Origin: a virus
DNA length: 64,000 nt
Direction: 5' to 3' (one strand)
IMG/VR virus record: IMGVR_UViG_3300045988_131275
Span: 32,001-96,000 of that record
Within the stretch, counting starts at the first letter, position 1; every line of letters starts with the position of its first letter. The notes beneath the pieces were generated by a model. The model was given only the letters and a program-made list of their open reading frames with translations, was not told the DNA's origin and did not search any database. Of this stretch, positions 20,593 through 60,304 are shown one piece after another. The position numbers and the translations under genes are program-made.

Positions 20593-21504
20593 TTATTCTC
20601 CTTCTACAATTCCCCAACCTTTACAAGTAGGACATTCACAATACTTTTTATTAATTTGTTCCATAAGTTCTGATAAATACTTTTCTATTTTATTTTGTAA
20701 ATCCTGATAATTTTTCCCGATAATAGATGGAGCTACGACACAATCATTACCATAATCAGAAGATGTTTTATTATCTTTTAAATTTATAATTGTTGATGAC
20801 TTCTCAGAAACCATTTTATTCACCCATTGTGGTTTTCTTCTCTTATTAAACAATGAATTATTTTTATCAACTAAAATATTATATGGATCTGCCAATGGAA
20901 TCTTTTTCTTTACTTCAAAATGGAAATCATAATCAGACGTAATAGTTGCAACACTGGTATCTATGTTTGCTTTTACATAATTTCTGATAATCTGTAGCAT
21001 TCTTTTGGAATCAATTTTACATGGTTTATCTTGATATGCTTCTTCTGGATATTCAATTTGTGTAAGCAAGCTGGATTCAGCGTCATATACATTCTGTATA
21101 AATTCAAAATCTTCTCTTGCGTAAATTTCTTTAATTTCAAATTCAATTGGTTCATATTCGCCTGGAATAGTATCGTATTTATAGTTATACAGTCCAATTA
21201 CTTCATCATATTCTTCACTCTGTTCCATTTCTTGTGTAATGATTTGTGGCATTAGTTCCGTTGCTGTATATCCTGCTTTTAACTCATATCTAACATTAAT
21301 ACGCTTGTCTTCTTGCTTCGCAGACACAACTTTAGGAATACTCATAAGTTTAAACCATCTATCTTTATTTGTTTTTTCTGGTGTTTCACCATCAAATTGA
21401 AATTGTGTTAAGTCTTTAGTTCCATAATAATCTTCATTTGCTATATAAATATAATTTTTACAGTTAATTACTTTAAGTTTTAGTGGATTTTCTTTATCGT
21501 ACAT
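20593..21504 (-). CDS. hypothetical protein with C-terminal CxxC..CxxC knuckle
   Basis: 303 aa ORF ending ..KKYCECPTCKGWGIVEGE. Confidence 0.7.
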   Translation of the reverse strand: MYDKENPLKLKVINCKNYIYIANEDYYGTKDLTQFQFDGETPEKTNKDRWFKLMSIPKVVSAKQEDKRINVRYELKAGYTATELMPQIITQEMEQSEEYDEVIGLYNYKYDTIPGEYEPIEFEIKEIYAREDFEFIQNVYDAESSLLTQIEYPEEAYQDKPCKIDSKRMLQIIRNYVKANIDTSVATITSDYDFHFEVKKKIPLADPYNILVDKNNSLFNKRRKPQWVNKMVSEKSSTIINLKDNKTSSDYGNDCVVAPSIIGKNYQDLQNKIEKYLSELMEQINKKYCECPTCKGWGIVEGE

Positions 21505-44544: not shown

Positions 44545-44769
44545 TTAAATTTCTCCCTTTGCTCCACAATTATCAGCAATAGTCCAATCGTCACATGCCA
44601 TGTTTTCAATAGTATATGTAATATCTTCTGAATCCCTGATGTTAATAATTTTCCCGTCATAACAATGCATCATAACTTCATTGCCATCCAGTTCCCACCA
44701 ACCTGTCCAATGTTTTCTTTTAATCTTGTGTCCTCTTTTAAGTGAAAATAATGCGCTTGCAAAATTCAT
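44545..44769 (-). CDS. DUF2829-family protein (Tad2-like candidate anti-Thoeris sponge)
   Basis: MNFASALFSLKRGHKIKRKHWTG.. and the C-terminal ..ACDDWTI match the DUF2829 pattern (F..AL.ALK.G.K..R..W ... DW.I). Confidence 0.55.
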   Translation of the reverse strand: MNFASALFSLKRGHKIKRKHWTGWWELDGNEVMMHCYDGKIINIRDSEDITYTIENMACDDWTIADNCGAKGEI

Positions 44770-45442: not shown

Positions 45443-45523
45443 TTTTCTCACCTCCTTCCACGCCTTGAAAAAATAATTTCATCTTTAATTTTTACCTATT
45501 TTAGATCATTTTCTTTAATAGGT

Positions 45524-46507
45524 TTACCATTCTGTCCAGTAAGCTAAATCATTTTCACAAAGTTCTTGATATTCTTGGTCTGAATAAAATCCATATAAGC
45601 AATCATCTGAACAAAAATATTCTTCTCCATCATTGATTACATATCCACTATTCATAACTTCTCCACAACTTGTACAAATTCTTGTGTCATCATTATCAAC
45701 GGTTTCTTTTGTTGATTTATATTTTTGATATATCTTTCGATATATTGGAGTTACAATTTTGTATCCATTAGTATTCAGATTTGTTTTTAATAAATTATCA
45801 TGATATTCTCTTATTTTCGATGCACACTGTAAATTCTCATTTCTTCGATACAATCCATACCTTTCTATTTCATCACGATATGATGTATATGTAATATATT
45901 TTTGTTTAGGAGAATTCATTGACTTATAATTTAAAGACATAAAATAATCAATCAGCTCTTTGCATTCTTTATATGGAGCAATGAATATTTTATCATTGAA
46001 AATAGATTTAATATATTTATATCCAGAAGATATAGGATCTTTTACTTTTTTTGTTCTTTCATTTTGAAACTGTTCATAATCTTTTGAGATTATACTCATA
46101 TGTTTTGACGTTCCATATAAATCATCCGCACATAAGCCACTAAGCACATATTTTTCTTTTATATATTTTTTTGCATATATAAATGGATGAATGCATTGAA
46201 CAGCAGATTTTTTGTATGTATGAAACCGATTTACAATATATTCAACATCACTAATTAATGTATTTATCTCTTGTTTAATAGGAATTTCAATTAGACTTAA
46301 TCCAAACAAGTTAGCAATTCTTCTAGCACTTTTTATATCACTCGATTCATATGTTTCTAAATAAAATGTATATAGCGTTGGGTTTACTCCAATGTCTAAA
46401 CAAGATAATAATATTGACAGACTGTCCAATCCACCACTGAATAAAATAGCTACAGAATTTTTATCTTTTATCTTATTTTCCAAAAAATCATTCATTATTT
46501 TTCGCAT
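45524..46507 (-). CDS. asparagine-synthetase-type PP-loop ATP-pyrophosphatase (amidating/ligating enzyme without a glutaminase domain) with a C-terminal zinc finger
   Basis: PP-loop AILFSGGLDSLS. AsnB-like YVLSGLCADDLYGTSKH and IFIAPYKE. C-terminal CTSCGE..YFCSDDC zinc motif. Overlaps the MTase stop by 20 nt. Confidence 0.75.
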   Translation of the reverse strand: MRKIMNDFLENKIKDKNSVAILFSGGLDSLSILLSCLDIGVNPTLYTFYLETYESSDIKSARRIANLFGLSLIEIPIKQEINTLISDVEYIVNRFHTYKKSAVQCIHPFIYAKKYIKEKYVLSGLCADDLYGTSKHMSIISKDYEQFQNERTKKVKDPISSGYKYIKSIFNDKIFIAPYKECKELIDYFMSLNYKSMNSPKQKYITYTSYRDEIERYGLYRRNENLQCASKIREYHDNLLKTNLNTNGYKIVTPIYRKIYQKYKSTKETVDNDDTRICTSCGEVMNSGYVINDGEEYFCSDDCLYGFYSDQEYQELCENDLAYWTEW

Positions 46508-47672
46508 TTATTATATCTCCAAATAAATTTTTATATATTGCTTTTACAATAGTTATTGGTATTGTTCTCCCTGCTCGTTCATATAATTTTGTCTCAGGTA
46601 TTTTTGCAATATCTTCAACTAAATTAAAATATTTATCATTCAGTAATTGTAATCTCCAACATTCTTTTGGAGTTAATTTCCTCACTGAACCATCTTTTTC
46701 CAGTATATGCTGGTAGCAAGTTGTTGTAAGAGTTTGAGCCACCCCATGTCCCACTCTACCTCTTCGTGTTTTACTATTATAATGAGCAACATTAATACTA
46801 TCTCCAATTGTTGCTTCTGTGTATCCTTTCTTTGTTGCTTCTCTTACTTTAACTATTGGATTTCCATTATCGTCAAATTTCAAATCAGTTATTAATCCAT
46901 TATACGTATTAGTTATATCCACATAATATTTTTGATTAACTTTATCTTTTTCTAATATATCAAGTAATGATAATTTCAAAGGAATTTCGTTTGGAATTAA
47001 AAAATTACCATCATCATCTAAAATTGAAACCATAATTACTCTTTCACGATTTTGTGGAATTCCATATTTCTTTGCGTTGAATATCTTCCAATAATTTTTA
47101 TAACCATATGAAGATAATGTATCGCACCATTCGTTGAAAATGTCTATATGAGCTTTACTGACTATATTTTTTACATTCTCCATAATTAAATATTTTGGTC
47201 TTTTGTATTTGATAAGTGGTTCACAATTCCAGACTAATGATGATTGTGTTCCACTATCTCTCTCAAAACCTAATTGTTGCCCTTCATTGGTAATATTTTT
47301 ACATGGAAATGAATATGTAAATAAATCAATATCAGGAAGATCATTTGTATTTATATTGCGAATATCTCCATAGTTTTTTATATTTTTACACGAATTATAT
47401 AATTTTAAAATTTCTTCATGGGACTTTGGAAGTTCAGATTTGCCAGTAGAAAAATTATAAGCAACATTTATTGTTTTTAGATATGTAATCATTTCATCAT
47501 CGGACAATACATCATTTGATATGTTTATAGATTCATTATGAATTGCGTCATATGATAATATTGCATATTTATCAACTTCACTTGTACCAACAAGATGATA
47601 ACTTATCCCCATTTCTTTGAGGGCAATTGTAAATATGCCAATTCCTGAAAATCCTTCAAATACATTTAGCAT
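46488..47672 (-). CDS. DNA (cytosine-5) methyltransferase-fold enzyme with atypical cofactor-pocket motifs (candidate carboxymethyltransferase)
   Basis: Motif I FEGFSGIG. Motif IV SFPCKNIT (PCK rather than PCQ). Motif VI IMENVKN. Motif VIII IPQNRERV. Motif IX RKLTPKECWRLQ. Motif X reads AGRTIPITIV, where canonical enzymes have GN(A/S)V. Confidence 0.85.
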   Translation of the reverse strand: MLNVFEGFSGIGIFTIALKEMGISYHLVGTSEVDKYAILSYDAIHNESINISNDVLSDDEMITYLKTINVAYNFSTGKSELPKSHEEILKLYNSCKNIKNYGDIRNINTNDLPDIDLFTYSFPCKNITNEGQQLGFERDSGTQSSLVWNCEPLIKYKRPKYLIMENVKNIVSKAHIDIFNEWCDTLSSYGYKNYWKIFNAKKYGIPQNRERVIMVSILDDDGNFLIPNEIPLKLSLLDILEKDKVNQKYYVDITNTYNGLITDLKFDDNGNPIVKVREATKKGYTEATIGDSINVAHYNSKTRRGRVGHGVAQTLTTTCYQHILEKDGSVRKLTPKECWRLQLLNDKYFNLVEDIAKIPETKLYERAGRTIPITIVKAIYKNLFGDIINAKNNE

Positions 47673-47683
47673 ATATGCACCCC

Positions 47684-48439
47684 CTATTTAATTGCAATAT
47701 ATCCCACAAAATTCATCCAACGCCAAAATACATCTACTTGTCTGAATCCTGCTTGATGTAATAACTCAACATTCCATTTATTCGTACATGGAACTAGAAC
47801 ACCCTCTAGTGATAATTTTTTTCTGTCTATTTGTTCTTGTGAATACCCATTTAATTTCTTTAGTCCATAATAATTCTCAACGAACATGTTATTTAATGAT
47901 GATGTTTCTCCTAATACTTTCTCCACCATCAAAAATATCCCATCATGATTTAATGATTTATATACATTCGCCAAAATATCTTGCCTATATTCAATAGGAG
48001 TAAACTGAATACATAATGTAGATGTGATTATATCGAAATATTCTCGTGGGAATTCATTTCTTAAATCCATATTTAAAATAGATACTCTTCCATTTTGTAT
48101 TTCTTTATCAAATCTTATACGTGCTTTATCAAGCATCGGCTCAGATACATCAATTCCAATATAATGTCCATGATTATATTTCGATAAGAAATCAGCAATT
48201 TGCAATCCATCTGAGCATCCGATATCTAATACTGAAAATGGTTGTGAACAATTTGATAATTCATTTTCTGAATATCTTTGTAATATTTTATTGATTCTAA
48301 TAGATGCCAAATCAAGAATAGATTTACGCATTAAGTTGTACTGTGGAATTGATCTTGAAAGCATATCTTCAAAACATTCTGCTACATTTTCATCAAATTC
48401 CCACTTATTATCTGGTAAAATATTGTCTTTGGTTTCTAT
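47684..48439 (-). CDS. cmoA: CmoA-like carboxy-S-adenosylmethionine (Cx-SAM) synthase
   Basis: WEFDENVAECFEDMLSRSIPQY, VLDIGCSDG and NGYSQEQIDRKKLSLEGVL..GFRQVDVFWRWMNFVGYIAIK follow E. coli CmoA (recalled) almost motif for motif. The homology extends 25 codons upstream of the first ATG (48364). The only in-frame near-cognate start there is ATA 48439. Confidence 0.85.
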   Translation of the reverse strand: METKDNILPDNKWEFDENVAECFEDMLSRSIPQYNLMRKSILDLASIRINKILQRYSENELSNCSQPFSVLDIGCSDGLQIADFLSKYNHGHYIGIDVSEPMLDKARIRFDKEIQNGRVSILNMDLRNEFPREYFDIITSTLCIQFTPIEYRQDILANVYKSLNHDGIFLMVEKVLGETSSLNNMFVENYYGLKKLNGYSQEQIDRKKLSLEGVLVPCTNKWNVELLHQAGFRQVDVFWRWMNFVGYIAIK

Positions 48440-48499
48440 AACACAACATCTCCCTTCTTACGATGTATTAAATTGTAAGTTTTTGAAAAACGCCTTGAA

Positions 48500-48553
48500 T
48501 TAAGGCATAAGAAATAATAGAAATTTTAAATATAATATTAACTACGATGAAAG
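48500..48553. repeat. intergenic motif pair TTAAGGCATA ... TACGATGAAAG (copy 2)
   Basis: The 10-mer is at 48500-48509 and the 11-mer at 48543-48553 (33-nt spacing). On the - strand the 10-mer is part of a GCCTT/AAGGC hairpin followed by TTTTT. Confidence 0.6.
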
Positions 48554-48565
48554 AAATATTTTATG

Positions 48566-48763
48566 TTACTTTTTGTCTTTAAATCTTGCATAAGCATCAC
48601 TTACGATTTTATTAAAATATAAATGTTGTTCTATTTCTTTATAAATGCTTTGCGTAATATGATTCTCGGTTTTCTTTACCATATAATCTTCCACTGTTTT
48701 AAAATTATTCATCAATTTTTCTTTGTCTGATAATTTGTTATTCTGTTTCTTCTTTCTCTTCAT
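48566..48763 (-). CDS. hypothetical basic protein
   Basis: I prefer ATG 48763 (MKRKKKQNNK..), which avoids a 53-nt overlap with the upstream gene. Confidence 0.55.
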   Translation of the reverse strand: MKRKKKQNNKLSDKEKLMNNFKTVEDYMVKKTENHITQSIYKEIEQHLYFNKIVSDAYARFKDKK

Positions 48764-56361: not shown

Positions 56362-57234
56362 TTATTCTCCTACATTAATCAACTTATCTATATATTCTCT
56401 ACCTTCACCTTTAAAAATTGGAATTTCTTTATCAATAATCCAAGCATTCTCAGATTCAGAACTATCTCTTAACTGTGTGATTTCTGTTGTCCCGTCTGTC
56501 GAAATAACAATATTATTTCTAACACAACAACTTCCCCTCTTCTGATGAGTAGGTAAATCATTCCAGTTAATTCCTTTATCAATTAACATATCTTGAATCT
56601 GATTGCACGATTTATTTTGAAGTTCTTTATGAGAAAAATTAGCTTGACCTACCATTTGAATTGAATTACGAGAAGCGTCTAATTGTCGCCAGTAGATAAG
56701 ATTTGTTACTTCTTCTTTCGGAATATTAAAACAACGTGCATCAAACATTGCGCCTTTTTCAACAGCTTTAGAATATGTTTCGCACATTTCATATTCTGGT
56801 GTACCTTTGCCATACCAACCATTAGTTTCATATTCTATCGCATAATATTGTTCAAGGTTTTCAACATTTTTTTTAAAGAATTTGTTAAACGCCATTGTAG
56901 CCATACTCGCTGCGATACTGCACATTTTCTGAACTTCATAATCAAACCATGCAGAAGAATTTAATTTCTTATAGTCAATCAGAATCAATGTAATCTCATC
57001 AGACTGAGTATATCCTAATACACATCCTTGGATATTTTCACAAAGATATTTCATTGTTTTCTGCATAGATTCAATTAAGACTTCATCAAATGGTTTATTA
57101 AATCCTCTTGTAAATGTATGAAATGCTTTACCATCAATTCTGATTGCAACTGGACAGCGGCGTATAAGTTTTGTTTTTGGAATTTCCTCATAAAAAGTTT
57201 TCATTCTAGTTCCTAAATCATCTCTTGTTGGCAT
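56362..57234 (-). CDS. tRNA-His guanylyltransferase (Thg1)-like 3'-5' nucleotidyltransferase
   Basis: MKTFYEE..CPVAIRIDGKAFHTFTRGFNKPFDEVL..M..L..GYTQSDEITLIL reproduces the Thg1/TLP N-terminal catalytic signature (R.DG..F..F..KP.D ... SDEIS). Confidence 0.75.
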   Translation of the reverse strand: MPTRDDLGTRMKTFYEEIPKTKLIRRCPVAIRIDGKAFHTFTRGFNKPFDEVLIESMQKTMKYLCENIQGCVLGYTQSDEITLILIDYKKLNSSAWFDYEVQKMCSIAASMATMAFNKFFKKNVENLEQYYAIEYETNGWYGKGTPEYEMCETYSKAVEKGAMFDARCFNIPKEEVTNLIYWRQLDASRNSIQMVGQANFSHKELQNKSCNQIQDMLIDKGINWNDLPTHQKRGSCCVRNNIVISTDGTTEITQLRDSSESENAWIIDKEIPIFKGEGREYIDKLINVGE

Positions 57235-58544: not shown

Positions 58545-59525
58545 CTATCCACGATTTTTCTTGTAATCTTGTACTAAATTGCCACAACATAATGGTAATT
58601 CTGCTTTGGCAGCTACATCTACAATAACTTTCAAACCACAACTTTCAACTTTTTCTTTAATCTTGTTCATATTTTCCCAATTCCACTGAATTGCATCTTC
58701 AAGACCATGTTCTTTTGTAGCAGTTGTTGTATTAAGCGGAGTAATCTTTACACAAAATACACTAGGATCAAGCCCGTATAATTTGTCTGGATTAAGTTCC
58801 CAACCTGTTCCACAAATAAAATTAAGAGTAATAAGCCTATTGTTGTTTGGCATATTATTAAATTCTCTTTTCATTTCTTCGATTGTCACAACATCTGCAC
58901 CACCGAATAAATATTTTCTCTCATCTTCATTTGTGCTATTCGTAGAAATCTGAATATGCATGAATCCGTTAAGATATTCTTTAACAGACATAACCTCTTC
59001 TTTTAATACATCAACTGGACTTTTACCAAATACTTTTACTTTCGGAAGAATCGTATTATAGCAAGGTAAAAATGTAAAACCTTCACGATATGTTTTCATA
59101 TCTTTCATAACCTGTAAAATATTCTTCCAGTTATATTGTGGTTCTCCCATACGTGCAAAACCAACTTTAATTTTATTACTTTTTGTGACATACGAATGCT
59201 GATTAAATACAAATTCAAGTTGCTCCCACATCTCTTCTGCTGATAAATTCCCATGAAACCCTAACTCTGGAACTAAACAGAATTGACATTTCTGAGGACA
59301 TCCATACTGAGTACTAATTGCAGTAAGCCATTTATCTTCAAAAGGCACAAGATTTTTCTTAATTAATTCTACATCATCAGTCATAATGACTTCTTGAGAT
59401 TTGCCTTTTGTATTTACATCCTGCATAGATGTTGTTTCAATATAAAAATCTTTTTCTTTGTTATAAAGCACATAAACACTACCACTTGGATATGTATACT
59501 CTTTTACCAATTCAAAATGCTTCAT
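58545..59525 (-). CDS. radical SAM enzyme with RlmN/Cfr-like architecture
   Basis: ISTQYGCPQKCQFCLVPELGFHGNLSAEE (CX3CX2C), ARMGEPQYNW, HIQISTNSTNEDER, CVKITPLN and the C-terminal PLCCGNL parallel RlmN block by block. The Cys equivalent to RlmN C118 is Ala. Confidence 0.65.
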   Translation of the reverse strand: MKHFELVKEYTYPSGSVYVLYNKEKDFYIETTSMQDVNTKGKSQEVIMTDDVELIKKNLVPFEDKWLTAISTQYGCPQKCQFCLVPELGFHGNLSAEEMWEQLEFVFNQHSYVTKSNKIKVGFARMGEPQYNWKNILQVMKDMKTYREGFTFLPCYNTILPKVKVFGKSPVDVLKEEVMSVKEYLNGFMHIQISTNSTNEDERKYLFGGADVVTIEEMKREFNNMPNNNRLITLNFICGTGWELNPDKLYGLDPSVFCVKITPLNTTTATKEHGLEDAIQWNWENMNKIKEKVESCGLKVIVDVAAKAELPLCCGNLVQDYKKNRG

Positions 59526-59539
59526 TTAATTATTCTCCT

Positions 59540-60271
59540 TTACCCACAGTATTGTTCAATTTCTTCATATTTCTTCATCCATACTTTTCTATCATCTTCT
59601 GTATAGCCAAAGAAATATGGATAAAGTTGATTGTTTGTTGTGAAATAATAATGATGATATTCTCCATCTGGTAAGAACATAACACCAGGAATATCAATAG
59701 AATCTTTAATTTTTAAGAAATTTTGATATGCTTTTTTATTACCAAACATTTGTCTGAATGTAATTTGTTGAACTCCGATACTACGCATTTTACTTATGTA
59801 TTGCAAGCAATCTTCTTTAGTCATTCTCTCATTAAGCACATTAATAACTCTTACTCTTGTAGTCTCTTCTATTTCAGGTAATTTCATTTTCAGTTTTTCT
59901 ACAGCATGAGAATCATTTGACTCAATGCTCAATGCAATTTTTCTAAATTTCTTAATTAAGTTCTTATCATCTGGTAAAATTCTTGTATGTATATCTAGTT
60001 TTTTATTATATTTTTTCGCAAGTTCATACACCTTATCATAAAAATCAAGATTATCTTTCCAATTATAAAATGGATCTCCACCACCAGATAAATTAACCGT
60101 AGGAGCATTTGATTCAGAAACACACTTTTCCAAATATTCCCAGTCAATTTTACTCTTATCTGTAATTGCATTTTGCAAAATTGGATGATGTTTTGTAATA
60201 CAATATTTGCAATTACAATCACACCCAAAATTGGTGATTATCGTAAATCCTCTATTAATTTCTGTATACAT
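59540..60271 (-). CDS. small radical SAM protein
   Basis: NFGCDCNCKYC (CX3CX2C) and NLSGGGDPF (GGE-like). I prefer ATG 60271 (TTGGAGAAAAT upstream) over the track start 60292. Confidence 0.7.
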   Translation of the reverse strand: MYTEINRGFTIITNFGCDCNCKYCITKHHPILQNAITDKSKIDWEYLEKCVSESNAPTVNLSGGGDPFYNWKDNLDFYDKVYELAKKYNKKLDIHTRILPDDKNLIKKFRKIALSIESNDSHAVEKLKMKLPEIEETTRVRVINVLNERMTKEDCLQYISKMRSIGVQQITFRQMFGNKKAYQNFLKIKDSIDIPGVMFLPDGEYHHYYFTTNNQLYPYFFGYTEDDRKVWMKKYEEIEQYCG

Positions 60272-60304
60272 ATTTTCTCCAATTCTTTCCATGAAACTGC
60301 CGTT

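Follow-up and report, generated by a model that had tools for sequence, protein, structure and literature searches.

The enzymatic carboxymethylation of cytosine in phage DNA has been demonstrated experimentally for the CmoA-CmoX-CmoY pathway of the Synechococcus phage S-B43 (Yang et al., Nat Commun, December 2025; PMC12783734). According to that report, CmoA of S-B43 forms carboxy-S-adenosylmethionine (Cx-SAM), CmoX carboxymethylates C5 of cytosine at GpC in double-stranded DNA (dsDNA), and CmoY, an asparagine-synthetase homologue that lacks a glutaminase domain, catalyzes the ATP-dependent ligation of glycine to the carboxylate. Thousands of candidate genes for CmoX, CmoA, and the ligase are also reported there from phage contigs. 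Here we describe a cmoA-cmoX-cmoY locus in a 64,000-nucleotide (nt) stretch of viral DNA, positions 32,001-96,000 of the IMG/VR record IMGVR_UViG_3300045988_131275; this stretch is called the window, and coordinates are positions within it unless another contig is named. Most likely, the locus encodes a CmoA-CmoX-CmoY module that hypermodifies DNA after replication, as judged from its sequences and by analogy with S-B43. Computation showed three intact enzymes of these identities, the diagnostic arginine of CmoX, the exclusive linkage of this residue with cmoA, purifying selection on the genes, and the cassette behavior of the locus.

Two cases bear on the use of Cx-SAM by enzymes with the fold of a C5-methyltransferase (C5-MTase). 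In the structure of the S-B43 enzyme (SpCmoX, PDB 8YF3), R350 replaces Asn304 of M.HhaI and contacts the carboxymethyl group of Cx-SAM; the R350N variant is inactive, and the wild-type enzyme takes only Cx-SAM (PMC12783734). Replacement of N374 in M.MpeI by lysine gives an engineered carboxymethyltransferase; it is the positive charge of the side chain here that supports the use of Cx-SAM. The N374K enzyme still methylates with S-adenosylmethionine (SAM). All of the characterized CmoA homologues, including TglE and MccS, produce Cx-SAM, and in CmoB, the transferase of the pathway to 5-carboxymethoxyuridine (cmo5U) in tRNA, the carboxylate of this cofactor is held by a set of Lys, Arg, and Tyr residues.

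Enzymes of the CmoA-CmoX-CmoY locus

The locus is composed of three minus-strand open reading frames (ORFs) that share one orientation and are arranged like an operon in the ORF list of the window. The cmoA gene (47684..48439) codes for a carboxy-SAM synthase homologue of 251 amino acids (aa) if translation starts at the ATA codon at 48439; the cmoX-like gene (46488..47672) codes for a candidate DNA cytosine C5-carboxymethyltransferase of 394 aa; and the cmoY ORF (45524..46507) codes for an AsnB-type ligase of 327 aa without a glutaminase domain. The gap between the end of cmoA and the start of cmoX is 11 nt, and cmoX and cmoY overlap by 20 nt. S-B43 likewise has these three enzyme classes together in an operon, in the order A-Y-X rather than the A-X-Y of the window. 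All peptide strings quoted in a preliminary description of this DNA, made from the letters alone, were located in the three ORFs, which lie at the coordinates given there.

The second gene had been described as a complete C5-cytosine DNA methyltransferase, and it was found to be one. The protein matches PF00145 with an expectation value (E) of 4e-57 and possesses all of the catalytic motifs, with C124 in SFPCK, ENV at residues 165-167, QNRER at 207-211, and R369 in ERAGR. Residues P123, C124, E165-V167, R209, and R211 are invariant within the CmoX clade. The AlphaFold model has a predicted local distance difference test (pLDDT) score of 92.7, and its best structural match by Foldseek is M.MpeI (PDB 4DKJ; E 9e-28, template modeling score ~0.74, 28% identity), which is also detected by sequence with E 5e-34. 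R369 aligns with N374 of M.MpeI and N304 of M.HhaI, and with R350 of SpCmoX; the last alignment was made via CmoX of phage S-B05, a protein with 100% identity to the 8YF3 chain. The window enzyme therefore carries a natural cationic residue at the exact position that was engineered in M.MpeI N374K and M.MedI N377K, as arginine rather than lysine, and it shares this arginine at the HhaI-N304 position with the S-B43 enzyme. In contrast to these engineered enzymes, it also has Lys in place of the Gln of the PCQ motif, a second replacement that is coupled to the first. Its target-recognition domain aligns poorly with that of M.MpeI, and so CpG specificity cannot be assumed. For S-B43 the target is GpC and the amine is glycine (PMC12783734).

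The protein encoded at 47684..48439 is a CmoA homologue, as had been proposed. It matches NCBIfam TIGR00740 over model positions 14-239 of 239 (E 7e-42, 143.7 bits), and the next-best methyltransferase family in the same profile search scores 51 bits. The protein aligns from end to end with YecO of Haemophilus influenzae (PDB 1IM8, E 4e-26) and with Escherichia coli CmoA (PDB 4GEK, E 5e-23), and it matches phrog_4752 with E 6e-64. The E. coli CmoA strings that the preliminary description had cited are found in the 4GEK chain. Of the cofactor contacts of E. coli CmoA (Y39, G64-S66, D89, D117, N132, and R199), the SAM-binding Tyr, the GCS motif, and both Asp residues are kept in the alignment to 4GEK, and N132 and R199 are not. 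The window protein belongs to the same Cx-SAM-forming family as CmoA of the tRNA cmo5U pathway, TglE, and MccS. Unlike those systems, the window yielded no CmoB-like protein in searches of its ORFs of at least 250 aa, in agreement with the earlier statement that no such transferase follows cmoA, and the proposed acceptor is C5 of cytosine in DNA rather than 5-hydroxyuridine in tRNA, a thiol, or a peptide.

The start of cmoA is unusual. After the in-frame TAA stop at 48458..48460, the first ATG, GTG, or TTG codon in the frame is an internal ATG at 48364, and gene callers begin the protein at this internal ATG to give 226 aa in public gene calls. The 25 codons upstream of it encode the conserved N-terminus of CmoA (KWEFDENVAECFED) and evolve under constraint in the comparison with a relative (L087). 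The probable start is non-canonical (48439..48457, minus strand): a Shine-Dalgarno-like sequence, GAAGGGAG, at 48450..48457 is followed by a 10-nt spacer and then by ATA at 48437..48439, with position 48439 being the first letter of the ATA codon. Homologues that start with ATG have their first codon at this same point of the alignment. The ATA codon and the Shine-Dalgarno-like sequence are both kept across 15% protein divergence in L087, in which an in-frame TTG is available further upstream. An out-of-frame ATG at 48449 abuts the Shine-Dalgarno-like sequence with zero spacer. A frameshift or sequencing error relative to this ATG was considered and rejected, since the start context is identical in an independent assembly (L003) and in view of the missing spacer. 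It thus appears that translation of cmoA probably initiates at AUA, a rare start codon. The start proposed earlier is plausible in view of the conserved upstream codons, but the codon at that position is ATA and not a canonical one.

The assignment of the third gene to the asparagine-synthetase-type PP-loop enzymes without a glutaminase domain was likewise confirmed. The ligase domain (45722..46507, minus strand; residues 1-262, with the PP-loop SGGLDS at 24-29) matches PF00733 above the gathering score (E 7e-9) and phrog_26038 with E 2e-32. For the model, with pLDDT >90 for residues 1-266, the Foldseek matches cover only synthetase domains, namely, those of human ASNS, E. coli AsnB, beta-lactam synthetase, and carbapenam synthetase (E 4e-11 to 1e-8). 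The window ligase shares with these enzymes the synthetase-domain fold and the SGGxDS PP-loop; it differs in lacking their N-terminal glutaminase domain, for which a protein of 327 aa has no room, and in its acyl substrate, presumably a DNA-borne carboxylate. The absence of a glutaminase domain is shared with the S-B43 ligase (PMC12783734). CmoY of phage S-B05, taken as the SpCmoY equivalent from the 100% identity of the neighboring CmoX, is 29.6% identical to the window protein over 253 aa (E 2e-29) and is co-linear with it across the whole ligase domain. A CmoA that adjoins an AsnB-like ligase is also found in Erwinia phage Y3 (L085, 4989..6657) and ~48 related jumbo-phage records. In Y3 the 10.7-kb annotated stretch contains no C5-MTase and has an annotated "oxygenase" nearby; the carboxymethyl acceptor may differ there.

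Gene linkage, conservation, and cassette exchange

Loci around relatives of the window CmoX were collected from IMG/VR and from species-representative bacterial genomes and were scored for the residue in motif X and for homologues of CmoA and CmoY within ~6 kb. For enzymes with Arg at the diagnostic position, cmoA is adjacent at 6/6 loci from IMG/VR, 2/2 from metagenome-assembled genomes of Bacillota/Bacilli, and 1/1 from a Clostridium sp. assembly. For enzymes with Asn, the corresponding values are 0/70 in IMG/VR, 0/70 in bacterial genomes, and 0/74 in a second, partly overlapping IMG/VR set. Adjacency of cmoA is thus observed at 9/9 other Arg-type loci in addition to the window and at none of at least 140 Asn-type loci. 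The nominal Fisher probability for 8/8 versus 0/140 is ~2e-13, or 1/C(148,8), by hand arithmetic over loci that are not phylogenetically independent. The gene order varies, from A-X-Y in the window to Y-X-A in Clostridium sp. (L250) and A-Y-X in L095, which argues for a functional rather than an accidental linkage and for selection for co-inheritance. A CmoY homologue is present at 5/9 of the Arg-type loci; the loci without CmoY would stop at 5-carboxymethylcytosine (5cxmC).

The residue in motif X covaries with motif IV. Of the 120 best database relatives of CmoX, 110 combine S[F/Y]PC(K/R) with ERAGR, and the other 10 combine PC(Q/T) with GN (11 if an M.MpeI-like outlier is counted). The covariation is perfect, with 109 K/R pairs, 1 R/R pair, 11 Q-or-T/N pairs, and no mixed pairs. 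The ERxGR motif is common to the window enzyme (E365-R366-x-G368-R369, ERAGR) and to SpCmoX (E346-R347-x-G349-R350, ERVGR), and the Asn-type relatives read KQAGN at this point. Its occurrence in two distant lineages suggests that ERxGR is a broader signature of the Cx-SAM-using state, to which the upstream Glu-Arg pair may belong. The available text of PMC12783734 makes no mention of this pair in its description of CmoX, and the supplementary text on the published CmoX set contains no identifiers or motif strings that match the window clade. A different arrangement was noted in Staphylococcus phage PhiSepi-HH3 (L084, 5675..6682), where the C5-MTase encoded beside an annotated cmoA shows PCQ as its motif IV and a Gly (VVGGVI), rather than Asn or Arg, at the diagnostic position of motif X. 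This enzyme may represent a third way to fit Cx-SAM or may be an unrelated methylase.

The window CmoX is 42-50% identical to its Asn-type relatives, 33% identical to M.MpeI, and 21% identical to SpCmoX, and its lineage is M.MpeI-like. In a full-length neighbor-joining tree, the Lys/Arg enzymes were not recovered as a clade. When the target-recognition domain and the diagnostic motifs were removed, they came together in essentially one group, which also enclosed one Asn-type sequence (P0095, on a metagenome contig, cmoA adjacent 0/1). In the catalytic-domain columns this group adjoins the Asn-type M.MpeI-like methylases and lies far from SpCmoX. The Cx-SAM-using state likely arose at least twice; independent origin is put forward here as a working proposal, because the tree is a quick neighbor-joining tree rooted on SpCmoX and carries no bootstrap or other support values. 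Much more tentatively, the S[F/Y]PCK...ERAGR clade could be a second, independently evolved lineage of natural carboxymethyltransferases that originated within the M.MpeI-like 5-methylcytosine (5mC) methylases by a coupled switch of Gln to Lys in motif IV and Asn to Arg in motif X, that became widespread in phages of gut Firmicutes, and whose CmoY, at only ~28-30% identity to the glycine ligase and with a zinc ribbon fused to it in the window, attaches an amine other than glycine. If this were true, the phage DNA would bear a hypermodified cytosine that has not been described before.

All three genes are under strong purifying selection. The ratios of nonsynonymous to synonymous substitution rates (dN/dS), determined against L087 (81-85% identical), are 0.06 for cmoA, 0.09 for cmoX, and 0.10 for the ligase domain of cmoY. 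At least 24 contigs of different gut metagenomes carry a CmoY of identical sequence within the same three-gene set.

The locus is a swappable cassette of ~3.04 kb (45503..48540, minus strand), with limits set by comparison to sister phages, and it resides in a hotspot for DNA-modification genes. Homology to the sister phage MT835469 ends at 45502/45503 and 48540/48541. In that phage, ~1 kb replaces the 3-kb module and encodes an 80-aa ORF and a 186-aa protein with an SNPPF motif, and the latter matches phrog_799 (DNA methyltransferase) with E 1.5e-28. A third relative (L253) breaks at 48541 and 45692, and its slot is occupied by a 398-aa protein (P0191). This protein is suspected to be an amino-methyltransferase from SSPPY and GWGSR motifs that were read by eye, and its N-terminal domain has no match in Pfam, NCBIfam, PHROGs, or the PDB. 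The hotspot therefore has at least three alleles in sister phages, namely, the CmoA-X-Y cassette, the small methyltransferase (L001, 9327..10336), and P0191 (L253, 1079..2296), all of which have a common upstream junction at window position 48541. The L253 junction at 45692 falls within the final 60 codons of cmoY in the window. The assembly L003 shares window positions 45703..48568 and carries the cassette with a split cmoY frame (L003, 6166..6986), which yields 184 + 84 aa without a zinc-ribbon tail and reflects a pseudogene or else an error of assembly.

The tail of the window CmoY (45524..45721 with the stop codon, minus strand; residues 263-327) is a zinc ribbon with the pattern CxxC...FCSDDC, which matches phrog_30009 (E 1e-5) and, weakly, zf-FCS. 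It was modeled with low confidence. The tail is an addition relative to the S-B43 ligase, and it is not present in ~65 CmoY homologues of 265-275 aa. The module usually occurs as a stand-alone protein of ~57 aa (copies P0193-P0205), and a copy that is 91% identical is fused to the unrelated P0191 in the same genomic slot of L253. The tail may be a DNA-binding or partner-binding module of the DNA-modifying enzymes in this phage group, or it may equally be a fusion scar of cassette exchange.

Proposed pathway and alternative explanations

The pathway proposed for the window would proceed as follows. CmoA would convert SAM and prephenate to Cx-SAM, a cofactor that the host, probably a Firmicute, presumably does not make. 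CmoX would flip a cytosine out of the helix, attack C6 with Cys124, and transfer the carboxymethyl group of Cx-SAM to C5, while Arg369, probably together with Lys125 of the PCK motif, would hold the carboxylate of the cofactor. The K125/R369 pair is envisioned by analogy with the Lys/Arg/Tyr set of CmoB. The product would be 5cxmC in the phage DNA. CmoY would then adenylate the carboxylate of 5cxmC with ATP and ligate an amine to form an amide, the amine being glycine in the only case characterized to date. DNA modified in this manner would be expected to resist host restriction enzymes and possibly other defenses. Analogy with S-B43 and with M.MpeI N374K is the basis for the proposed chemistry, for the part assigned to Lys125, and for the proposed function against restriction.

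The order of events put forward in the preliminary description, with Cx-SAM formation followed by carboxymethylation at C5 and amidation of the carboxylate, is supported by the S-B43 precedent, by R369, and by the co-occurrence of this residue with an adjacent cmoA. Its expectation that a natural 5cxmC pathway would be new, with 5cxmC known only from an engineered enzyme, has been overtaken by the S-B43 pathway published in December 2025 (PMC12783734). The cassette is a new and divergent example of a known pathway and not a new pathway. Of the two final products that had been considered, conjugation of an amine is favored by the glycine found in S-B43; plain 5-carbamoylmethyl-deoxycytidine is less likely, because the ligase characterized in that report attaches glycine rather than ammonia and because there is no glutaminase domain.

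Several observations weigh against this assignment. The support throughout is homology and gene linkage. The window CmoX is only ~21% identical to SpCmoX (E 3e-9), and 8YF3 appears at rank 34 in the Foldseek search behind M.MpeI, HhaI, and others. Motif IV reads SFPCK in the window and SPPCS in SpCmoX, so that the window enzyme has SFPC and not the SPPC used as a filter by Yang et al.; the catalytic Pro-Cys is kept. The CmoA score of 143.7 bits is below the TIGR00740 equivalog cutoff of 193.3, as for a divergent phage member, and the positions of R199 and N132 in E. coli CmoA are occupied by K and T, respectively. In the alignment, CmoA of S-B05, the stand-in for the active S-B43 SpCmoA, also has no Arg in the R199 column. 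The cmoA gene has no canonical start codon, and cmoY is frameshifted in the close relative L003 (96% identical). Finally, the extreme avoidance of CCGG, GGCC, and CGCG in the window would be needless if these sites were protected, and may predate the acquisition of the cassette.

It is very improbable that the cassette is a passenger, either in decay or poorly expressed, in which the start of cmoA has been lost, the zinc-ribbon fusion is a recombination scar, and little or no modification takes place. The missing canonical start, the broken cmoY of L003, the 3' junction of the cassette inside coding sequence that is shared with an unrelated gene, and the persistence of restriction-site avoidance speak for decay. 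Decay is difficult to reconcile, however, with dN/dS values of 0.06-0.10 in all three genes, with the constraint on the 25 codons before the internal ATG, with the identical proteins and arrangement in many independent gut metagenomes, and with the conservation of ATA and the Shine-Dalgarno-like sequence across 15% protein divergence. It is very unlikely that the MTase is an ordinary SAM-dependent 5mC methylase, with a CmoA that drains the SAM of the host or alters cmo5U in its tRNA and a ligase that is unrelated to DNA. The fold and all of the catalytic motifs are those of a canonical C5-MTase, the closest structures are 5mC enzymes, and even the engineered M.MpeI N374K still methylates with SAM; the depletion of SAM by CmoA is raised as a possibility by the authors of the S-B43 study (PMC12783734). 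Nevertheless, the exclusive co-occurrence of the Lys/Arg signature with cmoA would be unexplained if the two enzymes acted independently, and SpCmoX, with the same Arg, is reported to accept only Cx-SAM. A role in tRNA is also disfavored by the finding of no tRNA gene in the window and no CmoB-like transferase among its ORFs of at least 250 aa.

The chance that the module modifies RNA instead, at a cytosine of tRNA or rRNA as Dnmt2-type enzymes with the C5-MTase fold do, is slight in the extreme. The cellular role of CmoA is in tRNA modification, Dnmt2 structures are among the Foldseek matches of CmoX, and the window encodes a Thg1-like tRNA enzyme. Yet CmoX has by far its best matches in the DNA enzymes M.MpeI and M.HhaI, complete with a target-recognition domain, the sister phages hold DNA methyltransferases in the same slot, and the S-B43 precedent acts on dsDNA (PMC12783734).

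The assignment of a DNA hypermodification module would extend 5cxmC hypermodification from a marine cyanophage to a ~177-kb phage that is common in human-gut metagenomes. It would also make the signature for Cx-SAM use broader than published, with ERxGR in motif X and, in the window clade, PCK; a literal SPPC filter would miss this clade. Natural M.MpeI-like carboxymethyltransferases would be candidate starting points for DM-Seq and CMD-seq, two enzymatic ways of sequencing 5mC that now rely on the engineered N374K and N377K mutants. The amine used by the CmoY of the window clade could give a further new DNA base. The hotspot with its differing DNA-modification genes is a clear example of modular anti-restriction exchange. 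The novelty of the system now lies in the M.MpeI-like Lys/Arg clade and the ERxGR signature, in its amine and target motif, in the apparent AUA start, and in the modularity of the cassette and zinc ribbon.

Genome setting and neighboring genes

The window is AT-rich (~30% GC), and transcription is nearly all from the minus strand. A 177.8-kb contig from a human-gut metagenome is 100% identical to it over 6.5 kb, and the closest relative in GenBank is MT835469, an unverified 176-kb "Bacteriophage sp." from human feces. The Arg-type relatives of CmoX come from Bacillota, Bacilli, and Clostridium assemblies, and thus the host is probably a gut Firmicute; the host of S-B43 is a cyanobacterium. Gram-positive bacteria make 5-methoxyuridine instead of cmo5U and are not known to have CmoA, which would explain why the phage brings its own.

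The replication and nucleotide-metabolism genes in the window include those for NrdD, NrdG, ThyA, an NAD-dependent ligase, a DNA polymerase, RecJ, DnaB, and a primase; an endolysin and a large serine recombinase are also encoded. The ThyA homologue is ordinary and matches thymidylate synthase models over its full length, and for this reason the pre-replicative replacement of deoxycytidine by a thymidylate-synthase-like hydroxymethylase was rejected. With an ordinary ThyA and no hint of such a replacement in the window, C5 of cytosine should be free for post-replicative modification. A scan of the cassette for promoters and terminators returned no more matches than in shuffled sequence.

The k-mer statistics of the whole window show that CCGG and GGCC are each observed 0 times versus 16 expected, CGCG 2 times versus 17 expected, and GATC 97 times versus 241 expected. 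The observed/expected ratio of CpG is 0.59, and GpC is neutral. The avoidance of CCGG, GGCC, CGCG, and GATC indicates that the lineage is under restriction pressure; it neither reveals nor excludes any target motif for CmoX.

Two other ORFs resemble anti-defense genes. A clear homologue of Gad1, which acts against Gabija, is encoded at 20593..21504 (minus strand; PF25705, E 5e-66). A weak Tad2-like (Thoeris anti-defense) ORF of 74 aa lies at 44545..44769 (minus strand), less than 1 kb from the cassette, with E 1.8e-4, which is below the Pfam threshold. The Thg1-like tRNA-His guanylyltransferase homologue is encoded at 56362..57234 (minus strand; PF04446, E 3e-30), and an ORF of the relative L087 (9668..10513), judged by eye, is probably Thg1-like as well. 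Two adjoining weak radical-SAM ORFs are located at 58545..59525 and 59540..60292 (both minus strand), the former with partial likeness to the RlmN/Cfr RNA methyltransferases, at E 1e-11 and with a score that falls far short of the cutoffs.

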